Counted from the first letter of the stretch, positions 12,087 to 15,616 are shown. The stretch: DNA of 64,000 nt from Solirubrobacteraceae bacterium (GCA_017882455.1 JADGPL010000013.1:25116-89115); one strand, 5' to 3'. The notes: generated by a model not told the origin, from the letters alone. Translations and numbers: made by a program.

Positions 12087-12160
12087 GGGCGATTAGCTCA
12101 GTTGGTTAGAGCGCTTCTCTGATAAGGAAGAGGTCCCAGGTTCGAATCCTGGATCGCCCA
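12087..12160 (+). tRNA. tRNA-Ile (anticodon GAT)
   Basis: GGGCGAT TA GCTC AGTTGGTTA GAGC G CTTCT CTGATAA GGAAG AGGTC CCAGG TTCGAAT CCTGG ATCGCCC A folds as a cloverleaf. CCA is not encoded. Confidence 0.93.
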
Positions 12161-12198
12161 TCATCGCAGTCGGGCCAAAGTCCTCGCCATTCGTGCAG

Positions 12199-13698
12199 CT
12201 ACGCCATATGCGCCGTGGCATCTAGCGTGACCGCCGTCCCATCGCCGTACAAACGCCGATGCAACTCCACGGCCGTCTCCTCCGTAAGCCCGGCGATGAG
12301 GTCTACGACGACGCGCGCGCGACGGGCTGGTTCGTTTCCACCCTCGTCTAGGGTGCGCTTCGCGCCGGGCGGGAATATACGTCGATCGCCGTCTTTGCCC
12401 TCCCCACTTGCTGCGTAGTAGGCCTCGAACAGCTCCCGAACGACGCGCTGTTGCCCGTGCTGTACCACGGCAAGGCCTGGCCTCCGGATCACATACACGC
12501 GCACTAGCATCTTGAGCGCCTCGACCTCCCGGACGATGTCCGGATTGACAAAAACGCGCATCTTGCCGGAGGCGACCACGTCCTCCACTCTGAAGGCGCT
12601 CATGTAACGCGTGATCAGGTCGGAGTCAAAGCGCCGCATCAGTCGGCGATCATCCCTTCCGTGGCGATAGCCGCCAGTCGGAGCGAATGCAGCCGCCACA
12701 GTGCCTATAGCGTCGAGCAGTTGGTCCACGGTATATCGGGGCCAAGACGTGAGGTCTGCCTGCTTTGCGTCCTCGAGGAGCTCGTGCAGGCGCTTGAACT
12801 CATCATCGGTCGGCTCGCCGAGGCGATGGAGCGGAATCAGGCCAGCGCGGAAGAAGTCATCAGTATCGTGGACTGCATAGGTGAGGTCGTCTGCCCACTC
12901 CATGATGAGCGCCTCCAGACTGCGCTCGGGCAAATGTTCGTCGTCATCGACCCGTCCGCTGAACGCCCGAGCAAAAGCATAAGCTTCGTCGTCCTCCTTG
13001 TAAAAGCCCCACTTGCGCTCGCGTGCTCGAGCCTGGAGTGGGTCTTGGCGCCACCAGCGCCACGGGTACTTCAAGATGCCGTCCAGTGTCTGACGGGTGA
13101 GATTGAGGCCGCTACCGCCCGACCGCTGCGCGAGCCACGTCACGATCCGAAAGCTCTGGGCATTCCCCTCGAAGACGCCATCGTCCTGGATGTAGTCATT
13201 AGCGATCTCGTTGAGTTCGGCCTCAGCGATGTGGCCGAACGGAGGATGCCCGAGGTCGTGGGCGAGACAGCTTGCCTCAACCGCTCCCGGGTCGAGCGAC
13301 CGCACGGTTGCCTGTGCCCGTCCCGATATCCCGTCTTGCGCGGCGATCTCCAGGAGTCGCTCGGCGTTGCGTCGCCCGACTTGGGCCACCTTGAGGGAGT
13401 GGCTTAGGCGGTTATGGAACGCGTGCCCGGCCTCGGGTGCCGTAACTTGCGTAACGTAAGCGAGTCGCCGGAAGGCTGAGCAGTAGAGGACCCGATCGCG
13501 ATCACGCTCTCCGGGACCTCGATAGTCCTGTCCCCATTTGTCGCGGGCGTCGGATGAGGCTGTACTTTGGCCTGCGCGTTTCTGAAGCTCGCCTATAGCC
13601 TCGTCACTGCGCGGAGTGAGGAGTTCGTCCACACACGGCAGATTAGGCGCGAGGGCGGATGCGCAAGTCCTCGCCTTGTTCCAACCTTCCGTCGTCAA
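12199..13698 (-). CDS. dGTPase-family HD-domain dNTP triphosphohydrolase
   Basis: Up to 499 aa. HD motifs HNRLSHSLKVAQVGRR, CLAHDLGHPPFGH and EWADDLTYAVHDTDD. The likely real start is GTG 13632, 11 nt after the upstream ORF's stop. The first 22 codons of the track ORF overlap that ORF. Confidence 0.85.
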   Translation of the reverse strand: MTTEGWNKARTCASALAPNLPCVDELLTPRSDEAIGELQKRAGQSTASSDARDKWGQDYRGPGERDRDRVLYCSAFRRLAYVTQVTAPEAGHAFHNRLSHSLKVAQVGRRNAERLLEIAAQDGISGRAQATVRSLDPGAVEASCLAHDLGHPPFGHIAEAELNEIANDYIQDDGVFEGNAQSFRIVTWLAQRSGGSGLNLTRQTLDGILKYPWRWWRQDPLQARARERKWGFYKEDDEAYAFARAFSGRVDDDEHLPERSLEALIMEWADDLTYAVHDTDDFFRAGLIPLHRLGEPTDDEFKRLHELLEDAKQADLTSWPRYTVDQLLDAIGTVAAAFAPTGGYRHGRDDRRLMRRFDSDLITRYMSAFRVEDVVASGKMRVFVNPDIVREVEALKMLVRVYVIRRPGLAVVQHGQQRVVRELFEAYYAASGEGKDGDRRIFPPGAKRTLDEGGNEPARRARVVVDLIAGLTEETAVELHRRLYGDGTAVTLDATAHMA

Positions 13699-13885
13699 GG
13701 AGGCTTCTCAAGGCAAGCCCCATCACCGCGCTGCTCCAGCCATTGCGTGCCCGCGTTAGCAGATCACGCGCGGTCCACCCCTCTTCTGGCTGCTCGCCGG
13801 CGAGCGAAAGCAGCGCTTGCCCCGCTGCGGCGATCTCCTCGCTGATCACTTGGTCTGTGGTGTCGATCGCCATCGTCATCTCCAC
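13643..13885 (-). CDS. Small hypothetical protein, winged-helix-like, upstream of the dGTPase
   Basis: 80 aa. ...GWTARDLLTRARNGWSSAVMGLALRSLLDDGRLEQGEDLRIRP resembles a wHTH recognition helix plus wing. Same strand as the dGTPase and nearly abutting it. Confidence 0.5.
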   Translation of the reverse strand: MEMTMAIDTTDQVISEEIAAAGQALLSLAGEQPEEGWTARDLLTRARNGWSSAVMGLALRSLLDDGRLEQGEDLRIRPRA

Positions 13886-14065
13886 GTCGGTCGGGACCTT
13901 AGGTCATTTCTATACCCCGCGCCGGCCACAACACGCACCGACCGGGCGTTCGTTCTACTTCTTGGTGGACTACGAAATTATGCTTTGGCGTTCGGACGTC
14001 CCTAAACTGAGTTTCATGGGGGCAAAATCTCCAACCTGGGTTGGCAGTCAATATGGTGTCCCACC

Positions 14066-14698
14066 ATGATCTCCGGGACGGCGGAAGACTCGGGATGGAC
14101 TGCATCCGAGTTGCGTGTAGCGATTGGCCGGGCTCTGCTCGCGAGCGACGTGACGATGACGGCGGCGGACCTAGCAGCCGTCGTATCTTCGCACCAGTCG
14201 AACATCAAGAAGGAAGCAGAGCGGATGGCTCTCGCCGGGCTGATCCAGCGCGGTGCGCGCCGCCAGGCAAGCCCAAGTAAGCGCGGCCCGAAGCCCGAAG
14301 GCTTCGGCATGTCGCCGGCACAGCGCAAGCGCGCTTCTCGAGACTTGACCGCATACGTACCACCAGGCGTTCTCCGGCAAGGGCAGGAGGTAGTCAGGGC
14401 GTCTGCCGGTCCTGGGCATGCCGTCGACCTTCTTGGGGCTCTAACCGATGCCGAAGCGACGGTCAAGGCGGCCTGGGTCGCACTCGTCGGGGATGATCTG
14501 TTCGTTGCGTACAGTGGGCCGAGTGCCGCCAAGCCCGCTGTCGAGTTGCAGGCAGTCCTTGAAGCGGCCAACGTTCCGAGTCGGAGGGCAACGGTTGCGC
14601 GCGTCGCACCGGCCCACGAGTGGGTGCGGGACGGGCGTGAGGTCGTACGTGCGGTCGATCGCACGCAGGCCTCGCGCCGTAAGCCCCCTGTCGTGTAG
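14066..14698 (+). CDS. Hypothetical protein, N-terminal wHTH-like domain plus unknown C-terminal domain
   Basis: 210 aa, divergent from the wHTH/dGTPase pair. GWTASELRVAIGRALLASDVTMTAADLAAVVSSHQSNIKKEAERMALAGLIQRG looks MarR/wHTH-like. I recognise no family for the C-terminal half. Confidence 0.5.
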   Translation: MISGTAEDSGWTASELRVAIGRALLASDVTMTAADLAAVVSSHQSNIKKEAERMALAGLIQRGARRQASPSKRGPKPEGFGMSPAQRKRASRDLTAYVPPGVLRQGQEVVRASAGPGHAVDLLGALTDAEATVKAAWVALVGDDLFVAYSGPSAAKPAVELQAVLEAANVPSRRATVARVAPAHEWVRDGREVVRAVDRTQASRRKPPVV

Positions 14699-14730
14699 TC
14701 GTCGCTATTCGGCACGTCTGCGCCACGGCC

Positions 14731-14752
14731 TGATAAGGAAGAGGTCCCGGGA
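14731..14752 (+). repeat. Partial direct repeat of tRNA-Ile (anticodon loop to variable region); relic att site
   Basis: ctgataaggaagaggtccc (19/19) is identical to tRNA positions 12118-12136. One mismatch follows, then gg. Confidence 0.7.
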
Positions 14753-14775
14753 GAGGTGAGGCTTATGGTCGTGGC

Positions 14776-15042
14776 TTACGCCGTGGCGGCCGCACGCCGC
14801 TGAGCGTGCGCGTACAGCGTCTCGGGCGCTATGTCTGCCCCGTTGGGCCAGACGATCGTGCCGGCCTCAGGGTCTGCGGTGAGGCGAGCGAAGTAGGAGC
14901 GCTCGCGTAGCGGCTCGAACACGCCGCCGTACTCGAGCAGATAGGAGAGGTCAACGTCGGCTGTCGTGCCGTCATCGAAGCGAACGTGGACAGCGTAGCC
15001 GTCTATCGCCTGAGCGTCGGCGAGAAGGGGCGTGCTGCGCAT
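14776..15042 (-). CDS. DUF2442-family protein
   Basis: 88 aa. AVHVRFDDGTTADVDLSYLLEYGGVFEPLRERSYFARLTADPEAGTIVWPNGADIAPETLY matches the DUF2442 pattern. Paired with a DUF4160 gene immediately upstream. Confidence 0.7.
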   Translation of the reverse strand: MRSTPLLADAQAIDGYAVHVRFDDGTTADVDLSYLLEYGGVFEPLRERSYFARLTADPEAGTIVWPNGADIAPETLYAHAQRRAAATA

Positions 15043-15061
15043 AGCAGGAATGTTAGAGCGC

Positions 15062-15331
15062 TCAGCGCAGCGGGTCGACTGGCAGCAGCGGCTCGTTGGC
15101 GCGCGCTCGCGACCAGTTTTCGCGCAGCTCGGCTTGGTGCGCTTGCCCCCACTCGGTCACGAGGCGCCGACCACGAGGTGGCAACTCCCCGGCGAGGATC
15201 GCCAGGCTCTCGATGTCGATCGTGGCCTCGTCCTCGCCATAGGTGGCGTGGAAGTGCGGCCGACCGCGGTGGTGAACCTCGTCGTAGTACATCCAGATCA
15301 CGATCCCGTAGAACGCGCTGATCCTCGGCAT
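15062..15331 (-). CDS. DUF4160-family protein
   Basis: 89 aa. MPRISAFYGIVIWMYYDEVHHRGRPHFHATYGEDEATIDIESL is the characteristic DUF4160 N-terminus. Confidence 0.75.
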   Translation of the reverse strand: MPRISAFYGIVIWMYYDEVHHRGRPHFHATYGEDEATIDIESLAILAGELPPRGRRLVTEWGQAHQAELRENWSRARANEPLLPVDPLR

Positions 15332-15579
15332 GGGCTACCCGCTCCAATGAGCAGCCGTCGTTGCGGCCGCGACGGCCGCGAGCGCTGAGTCCGAGCGATC
15401 TCGATGCCACATGGCGAACGCAGGCTATCCGGGCGTCCGGGGCAGCAGGCACGTTCCGCTGCCCAAACCCAACCGAATCGGACCCAATCCCGCCGTATCC
15501 GCGCGGTACACCGGCCACGAGAATCTCTCGCAAACACTGGCGATCAGGCGCTTTCAGCGCCTCTGCATCGAGTCATGAC

Positions 15580-15616
15580 AAGGAAGAGGTCCCAGGTTCG
15601 AATCCTGGATCGCCCA
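15580..15616 (+). repeat. 37-nt exact direct repeat of the tRNA-Ile 3' half (attR-like)
   Basis: aaggaagaggtcccaggttcgaatcctggatcgccca is identical to 12124-12160. The 5' half of a tRNA is absent, so this is not a gene. Confidence 0.85.

Follow-up and report, generated by a model that had tools for sequence, protein, structure and literature searches.

This report concerns an array of displaced tRNA fragments and small gene modules that follows a tRNA-Ile gene in the chromosome of a Solirubrobacteraceae bacterium (GCA_017882455.1, JADGPL010000013.1:25116-89115). The whole stretch of DNA that was analysed, 64,000 nucleotides long and read on one strand, is referred to as the window, and positions are counted from its first letter; a contig with 100% identity to it is present in SRR10489817. 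The tRNA gene, tRNA-Ile(GAT), lies on the + strand at 12087-12160, where it had been placed by an initial annotation made from the sequence alone and where both ARAGORN and Rfam find it (Rfam tRNA model, 75 bits). Upstream of it are rsmG, parA and parB and then HipA and HipB, and the presence of rsmG, parA and parB places the locus in the origin region. At the other end the array gives way to a gene for a GGDEF-EAL protein (15658-17562, − strand; Pfam), which is chromosomal flank outside the array and which is syntenic and ~98% identical in two contigs of a sister strain (L001 and L002). Between the tRNA and this flank lie two modules, which we call A and B, each followed by a copy of part of the tRNA.

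The tRNA gene itself forms the left attachment (attL) end of the array, and the att core that it shares with its copies is 12119-12160, from the anticodon loop to the 3' end. The middle copy matches the tRNA at all 19 positions of 14730-14748 and at 21 of 22, with one mismatch, when extended to 14751; the match and its extension had been described correctly in the initial annotation, with coordinates one base too high. This fragment (14730-14751, + strand) stops after the variable region and constitutes the right attachment site (attR) of module A and the former attL of module B. The distal copy, annotated as a perfect 37-nt match at 15580-15616 and found to be exactly that, can be extended upstream to 15576 with 40 of 41 positions identical, and at 15576-15616 (+ strand) it forms the outermost attR, the displaced original 3' half of the gene. 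A 22-mer search allowing up to three mismatches finds the tRNA, the middle copy and the distal copy as the only three sites in 64 kb, and a second search with the 3' 22-mer of the tRNA finds only the tRNA and the distal copy; the number expected by chance for either set of matches is 0.00 (100 dinucleotide-preserving shuffles), which rules out that the repeats are chance matches.

The anticodon-centred attP class of tyrosine integrases has been catalogued by Islander (PMC4383910), and the array has the ends described for islands of this kind, with an intact tRNA at one end and same-orientation fragments at 14730-14751 and 15576-15616. Identity with the tRNA begins at C33, the first base of the anticodon loop, in six full scars of related loci (L008/L001, L013, L014 and L016) as well as in the middle copy of the window, and in every full copy it continues to the 3' end of the tRNA, an identity block that corresponds to the anticodon-centred class. 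There are two exceptions at C33, namely the scar of L017, which reaches about 4 nt further upstream, and the distal copy of the window, which is mismatched there; the latter has a substitution in the anticodon loop, and its counterpart in the sister strain is identical to the tRNA at 42 of 42 positions. Rfam recognises only the tRNA itself and no known RNA in the arms or repeats. Within the window the repeat array is restricted to tRNA-Ile: a tRNA-Lys(CTT) gene at 57341-57414 was considered as a second hotspot and rejected, since no fragment of it is copied elsewhere in the window. The tRNA-Ile repeats are scars of att type, left where elements integrated site-specifically into the tRNA; neither of the two tRNA-like fragments is a gene, and the genes enclosed by them are accessory.

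Module A opens with a left (P') arm of 38 nt (12161-12198), running from the 3' end of the tRNA to the stop codon of a dGTP triphosphohydrolase-family HD hydrolase (12199-13632, − strand; Pfam HD and HD_assoc), hereafter the dGTPase. This arm has stayed with the module in L011, L013 and L019, and the sister-strain contig L008 has an unrelated sequence next to the tRNA. Gene calls on identical contigs give the dGTPase a length of 477 aa, and its open frame extends to 13698. It scores 245 bits against TIGR01353, above the cutoff of 152, and 229 bits against NF041026 (antiphage_dGTPase), below the cutoff of 400; the PADLOC dGTPase hidden Markov model matches it at 7e-90, and these are general models that a housekeeping Dgt would match too. 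Next to it is the gene for a protein of 78-80 aa (13643-13885, − strand), which always accompanies the dGTPase and whose position is conserved in L011, L012, L019, L020 and L021. This small protein has no family match in Pfam, NCBIfam, PADLOC or PHROGs, and its single-sequence AlphaFold2 (AF2) model, with a predicted local distance difference test score (pLDDT) of 75, consists of a helix and a helix-turn-helix-like fold to which Foldseek found no significant match. The spacer that follows had been singled out earlier for its low GC content, and the GC minimum does lie there (57.7% in 13850-14149); it is simply the divergent intergenic region (13886-14065) between the small open reading frame (ORF) and the third gene, with one weak promoter-like match at 14041-14070 in promoter and terminator scans that were otherwise uninformative. 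Module A as a whole has a GC content of 63.4% vs 68.9% for the window.

The third gene of module A (14066-14698, + strand) encodes a 210-aa protein, modelled by AF2 (pLDDT 82) as a winged helix of ArsR/MarR-like type with a ferredoxin-like C-terminal domain. Its best Foldseek matches are PaaX, AbfR2, CadC, MarR and Lrp-like structures, none of them below E=4e-3, and the model makes it a probable regulator; homologues found by sequence search are confined to the Solirubrobacteraceae. A hidden recombinase was considered for this protein and rejected, given the winged helix-turn-helix (wHTH) and ferredoxin-like model, the lack of any recombinase match and the lack of an invariant tyrosine in the alignment, and on the predicted structures neither the 78-80-aa nor the 210-aa protein resembles a recombinase. 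The module closes with an eroded right (P) arm (14699-14729), of which about 23 nt are left, vs 87 nt in L013 and ~190 nt in L014, with the motif ATTCGGCACGTCTGCGCCACGGC immediately 5' of the core.

Module B (14752-15575), the module farthest from the tRNA, is by its domain content a toxin–antitoxin-like pair of DUF4160 and DUF2442 proteins, and the ~98% identical sister strain has it as well. The DUF2442 protein (14776-15042, − strand; Pfam PF10387, 1.5e-16) is a DhiA-like putative antitoxin and the DUF4160 protein (15062-15331, − strand; Pfam PF13711, 2.5e-18) a DhiT-like putative toxin. Against the NCBIfam models the two reach 20.9 bits for DhiA (cutoff 200) and 77.3 bits for DhiT (cutoff 100), so that the adjacent domains make the pair DhiTA-like in sequence and not an equivalog. 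In its last ~80 nt the right (P) arm of module B (15436-15575) has homology to the module A P arm of L013, and for L014 the homology extends to ~135 nt (blastn against L014 1232-1409, 71.5% identity). Modules A and B therefore have one conserved P-arm type next to the core, and the integrase element and restriction–modification (R-M) module of the sister strain, described below, have another. The shared P arm opens with a conserved hairpin-forming GGCAGCA...TGCTGCC followed by CAAA(C/T)CC (window 15436-15470; L014 1227-1262), which could be a protein-binding site or a terminator.

None of the five enclosed ORFs is an integrase, an excisionase or a replication gene in searches of Pfam, NCBIfam, PADLOC and PHROGs, as the initial annotation had stated. 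A tblastn search with four proteins of related loci as queries (three integrases, one serine recombinase) gave nothing better than E=0.47 in the whole window, and no integrase pseudogene remnant was found by it in module A, in module B or elsewhere in the window. The integrase that Islander looks for in each island is thus missing here by domain searches and tblastn alike.

The most informative relative is the sister strain, whose contigs L001 and L002, from a soil metagenome, were found by exact-protein look-up with the DUF4160 protein, encoded identically in both, and were extended as L008 and L009. Exact look-ups with the GGDEF-EAL protein, ParB and HipB gave no match, probably owing to start-codon or sequence differences. 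The flanks of the sister array are 97.7-98.3% identical to the window (97.7% beyond the distal copy), and homology breaks at 12160, exactly the 3' end of the tRNA, and again at 14744, inside the middle copy. Adjoining the tRNA in this strain is an element of 7379 nt, whose 412-aa tyrosine integrase has its stop codon 35 nt away from the tRNA and which also encodes two HTH_17 proteins of excisionase-like type, XRE regulators and a primase/helicase-like AAA_25 protein. Outwards from it follow a full 42-nt copy of the tRNA 3' half, a type II R-M module of 3590 nt with a XamI-type restriction endonuclease and a methyltransferase, a second full copy (42 nt), module B (1173 nt), a third full copy (42 nt) and the GGDEF-EAL flank. 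Both arms of the R-M module match those of the integrase element, the right over ~130 nt and the left over ~100 nt, and the final 17 codons of an integrase survive in the module, which identifies it as a deletion derivative that retained both att ends; on this comparison, decay in situ is documented at the sister locus.

Module A is absent from this strain, which has the R-M module and the integrase element instead, and the content between the tRNA and module B is entirely different in the two strains. Not all relatives, then, carry the same 3.4 kb at this position, and module A is variably present among close relatives, as Islander expects of an island; module B is in both strains, and no genome lacking it was found. 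The att-scar signature proposed by the initial annotation, its minimum of two insertion events and its designation of the locus as a variable hotspot for accessory, defence and toxin–antitoxin genes are all upheld. The short middle copy needs a correction: it is no att site of a separate kind, and alignment of the two strains shows it to be the full 42-nt scar of the sister strain minus ~356 nt. The deletion, with its junction at a GTCCC/GTGCC microhomology, took the 20-odd nt at the 3' end of the scar together with the left arm of module B. Because its right arm is shortened and its attR has been cut by this deletion, module A of the window is, as far as its sequence allows a judgement, probably immobilised.

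Several further observations concern the integrase element of the sister strain and its relatives. The 7.4-kb element (L008 4724-12102, and the same in L009) has no capsid or conjugation genes and encodes paralogous proteins of 135 and 139 aa, the former belonging to a family widespread in Solirubrobacteraceae, and from its gene content it appears satellite- or tycheposon-like. A metagenome scan with its AAA_25 protein returned only three short contigs (L004-L006), of which L004 (1-7377) holds a relative of the element with an 82% identical AAA_25 protein, on a contig that also has a tRNA-Ala(CGC) gene. A related element on L007, with a 327-aa integrase and a serine recombinase, has no tRNA-Ile and is uninformative on the att site. 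Viral contigs were scanned as well: neither the scar pattern nor the 210-aa family nor DUF4160 was matched there, and the integrase had one distant match at 25% identity.

Relatives of module A were traced through the contexts of 210-aa homologues, obtained by look-ups and one genome-collection scan. The block of dGTPase, 78-80-aa ORF and ~210-aa ORF stands directly after tRNA-Ile in L011, L012, L013, L016, L017 and L019; two extra genes separate the tRNA from it in L015 (the same contig as L020), and L014, from the metagenome-assembled genome DASZFY01, starts inside the block, leaving only the distal scar visible. Full distal scars follow the block in L013, L014 and L016, the L016 scar having the tRNA variants of its own genome and the L014 scar a G in the T loop, and L017 has its scar, which carries two mismatches, 10.5 kb further downstream. 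Degenerate scars downstream of the block in L011, L012, L015, L017 and L019 were considered and rejected, the local alignment scores being at noise level. Among the window, L011, L013 and L019 module A is 92-96% identical, with ~94% for L014 and ~84% for L012, and the high-identity block shared with L011 corresponds to window 12087-14706. The rsmG-parB core of the module A hosts is only 74-76% identical to the window, and between the genomes it is 72-77% identical in pairwise comparison, with the exception of L011 and L013 (85%). A module that is 92-96% identical in hosts of genus-level divergence with ~75% core identity, at the same tRNA, indicates that the integrase-less unit itself was transferred horizontally, and by these identities module A has moved recently between several lineages, in each case landing at tRNA-Ile. 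The word decayed, which the initial annotation had applied to the island as a whole, accordingly fits the scars and not module A, which is a discrete and recurring three-gene mobile unit.

Some peculiarities of these relatives are recorded here for completeness. The dGTPase gene is split into short ORFs in L017 and shortened in L019 and L021. The tyrosine integrase of L017 is 44% identical to that of the sister strain and is separated from the end of the module-A-like block by 34 nt; it occupies 10539-11952, where it aligns with the L008 integrase as two segments that are not in one frame (residues 1-62 at 11952-11752, residues 140-375 at 11417-10698), which suggests a frameshift or a pseudogene. 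ARAGORN made two odd calls within the islands or close to them, a 91-nt 'tRNA-???' with a 4-nt anticodon in L016 (10331-10421) and an 88-nt tRNA-Ala(CGC) in L017 (15950-16037), and these may be further att-related pseudo-tRNAs.

We consider it probable that the locus is a tandem array built by repeated integration at the anticodon loop of tRNA-Ile(GAT) near oriC, and that its integrase-less, att-bounded modules resemble cis-mobilizable elements (CIMEs). At each integration the tRNA would be rebuilt from a copy borne by the element, and the previous 3' half would be pushed downstream. The tyrosine integrase of a co-resident tRNA-Ile-specific element, acting in trans, would recombine the att copies that flank a module, and the unit would then excise and integrate either alone or as a composite with the integrase element; the 7.4-kb element of the sister strain is the kind of helper envisaged, and for this route of accretion we take a cis-mobilizable-like transfer to be most likely. 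Complete att sites lie on both sides of module A in L013 and L016, and of module B in L008; in the window the attR of module A is truncated and its arm eroded, and the outer scar of module B has its substitution in the anticodon loop. Integrases that target tRNA-Ile are present in the same population, in the form of the sister-strain integrase abutting the tRNA and its homologue in L017, and an integrase element stands in tandem with integrase-less modules in L008 and an integrase abuts a module-A-like block in L017.

A number of observations weigh against this reading. No integrase was found beside an intact module A with the intervening scar preserved, and a cognate integrase for the arm type of A and B was not found among the loci examined; the P-arm type of the sister integrase element differs from that of the two modules, which may mean that the element is not their cognate helper. 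Neither circular nor excised forms were observed, and an empty site in the strict sense, with tRNA-Ile followed directly by the flank from 15617 onwards as the initial annotation had proposed, was looked for and not found; nor was a parental integrative and conjugative or integrative and mobilizable element (ICE/IME) found for either module. Five carriers (L011, L012, L015, L019 and L021) have no distal scar, and in L021 the three-gene block sits in an ordinary chromosomal context that is not next to any tRNA. In L015, L016 and L017 the block is no closer to the window than the core genes are, and for this reason it may also be a cluster of genes long resident in the family. All relatives are, moreover, metagenome contigs or metagenome-assembled genomes. 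The three-gene cluster is probably an old gene set of the family, of which one lineage became, or stayed, att-bounded and mobile. Tentatively, and as a possibility to which we give distinctly less weight than to CIME-like modules, module A and perhaps B, with its shared P arm, could belong to a dedicated class of minimal integrase-less cassettes, consisting of cargo and a conserved att arm of ~80-190 nt and shuttled between genera by tRNA-Ile integrases of small satellite-like elements; the locus beside oriC would then be an integron-like array in which defence and toxin–antitoxin cassettes are exchanged. In a bolder variant, the wHTH proteins of the module may themselves recruit a host or foreign recombinase; what the fold search speaks against is only that the 210-aa protein is such an enzyme.

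The origin of the modules could also be sought, on a literal reading of the initial annotation, in two integrase-bearing islands that inserted successively and each decayed in place, with loss of the integrase and of most other genes, A and B then being arbitrary leftovers. Decay of this kind is real at the locus, as the R-M module of the sister strain with its two arms and 17-codon integrase remnant demonstrates, and the eroded arm and truncated scar of module A in the window, like the L017 integrase directly after a module-A-like block, would be in keeping with it. For module B nothing contradicts it. For module A, however, the same three genes with the same left and right limits recur in at least five other hosts, and given the contrast between the identity of the module and that of the host core, independent decay to an identical remnant is not credible and the reduced form must have spread; no trace of an integrase pseudogene, furthermore, was found by tblastn in either module or in the rest of the window. 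Decay in place thus strikes us as an unlikely account of the two modules. For the spread itself the main rival is general recombination, in which no integrase takes part and the tRNA (74 nt) together with the 42-nt copy serves as portable homology for RecA-dependent or homology-facilitated recombination. The homology available is very short, at 42-74 nt. In tRNA and scar, on the other hand, there is little or no difference between hosts that elsewhere share only ~75% identity. That the module-A loci, L017 excepted, are without an integrase, and that the scarless carriers have the same module with different downstream DNA, as one-sided homology and illegitimate joining would produce, speaks for such a route; the precise start of identity at the anticodon loop is by contrast that of integrase-made junctions, the conserved P arm of ~80-135 nt that travels beside the core suggests protein-binding att arms, and integrases for exactly this core are present in the same population. 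On balance, recombination through tRNA homology seems to us improbable.

That segment A should simply be the ancestral neighbourhood of tRNA-Ile, with the tRNA-like repeats as conserved functional elements, we regard as very improbable indeed, and the comparison with the sister strain and the identity values largely refute it. The three-gene block does adjoin tRNA-Ile in most of the relatives sampled, its divergence in L015, L016 and L017 is close to that of the core genes, and its setting in L021 is an ordinary chromosomal one. It is nonetheless missing from a strain 98% identical to the window, it is far more similar across hosts (92-96%) than their cores are (~75%), and its GC content is lower than that of the window. 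The scars are variably present, absent or truncated and in the sister strain bound unrelated cargo (the R-M module, the toxin–antitoxin pair and the integrase element), and Rfam, as noted, finds in the repeats no RNA other than the tRNA.

Integration arrays of this general kind have precedents, and what is new here is the particular dGTPase module, its integrase-less spread between lineages and the clade in which it occurs. CIMEs and their site-specific accretion have been described (PMC5704250), with ICESt1/CIME of Streptococcus thermophilus as the example. Like these, modules A and B lie between att copies, of which the attR of A is truncated in the window, and are without genes for integration or transfer in domain searches, tblastn and fold search, they adjoin other elements in a tandem at a tRNA gene's 3' end, and the sister strain stacks an integrase-bearing element onto integrase-less modules of which one, the R-M module, is demonstrably a deletion derivative. 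They differ in that the host is an actinobacterium of the Thermoleophilia and in that no conjugation genes were seen, the candidate helper, 7.4 kb long and satellite-like, encoding an integrase together with a primase-helicase-like protein; module A, moreover, is only 2.6 kb long, retains nothing recognisable of a parental ICE or IME and has a documented spread between divergent hosts. A parallel in layout is found in Dehalococcoides, where islands including integrase-less putative CIMEs are arranged in tandem at ssrA (PMC3146451). There too the islands lie downstream of a single small-RNA gene and each ends in a direct repeat of its 3' end, with a conserved motif just upstream of the repeats and the 3' end of the integrase abutting attL, and some islands without an integration module were proposed to be CIMEs. 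The Dehalococcoides islands use the T loop of tmRNA, a 20-bp repeat and a CcrB-like serine recombinase, whereas the tRNA-Ile array uses the anticodon loop, a 42-nt repeat and tyrosine integrases, and its cargo consists of putative defence and toxin–antitoxin genes instead of dehalogenases.

With the islands catalogued by Islander and the tycheposon arrays of Prochlorococcus (bioRxiv 10.1101/2020.12.28.424599) the locus shares a regenerated tRNA and displaced same-orientation 3' fragments at island ends, as well as the pattern in which later arrivals push earlier ones outward and partial tRNAs and degenerate elements accumulate; both surveys key on an integrase per element, and modules A and B would fail them. 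With regard to cargo, the dGTPase resembles the PADLOC dGTPase/NF041026 family in its HD and HD_assoc domains and in its location on mobile, variable DNA, and it differs in scoring below the NCBIfam family cutoff and in the constant company of two small DNA-binding-type proteins that are outside the described anti-phage system. The DUF4160/DUF2442 pair has its counterpart in the DhiT/DhiA toxin–antitoxin system described in Dickeya (PMC8198452), likewise adjacent genes on mobile variable DNA, from which it differs in its scores below the NCBIfam cutoffs.

The surroundings of the array hold variation of their own. Both the window and the sister strain (L008) have the HipA/HipB toxin–antitoxin pair (HipA 10248-11477 and HipB 11477-11734 in the window, − strand) between parB and tRNA-Ile. 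The pair is missing in L011, L012, L013, L015 and L019, with the tRNA coming straight after parB. With a GC content of 65.3% vs 68.9% for the window and no att repeats seen, 10248-11734 looks like a separate accessory insertion 5' of the tRNA. On the other side, a region at window 26573-27646 is paralogous to the GGDEF-EAL gene that flanks the array, with ~67% nucleotide identity. At window position ~19041 the sister strain has an extra 3.2 kb (L001 3059-6277) between the CN_hydrolase and agmatine deiminase (PAD_porph) genes, encoding an AA_kinase, an OTCase-family carbamoyltransferase and an amino-acid permease that are missing from the window, a difference that amounts to an indel in a putative agmatine/putrescine pathway cluster.

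Island finders that require an integrase would miss modules such as these, even though one of them has clearly moved between hosts that are ~25% different in their core genes. Built on one tRNA and one 42-nt core, with two types of arm and four or more types of cargo, the locus offers itself as a test system for such movement. If integrases do act on these modules in trans, tRNA-Ile would provide a cheap route by which defence and toxin–antitoxin genes spread through a poorly studied and mostly uncultured family of soil actinobacteria.

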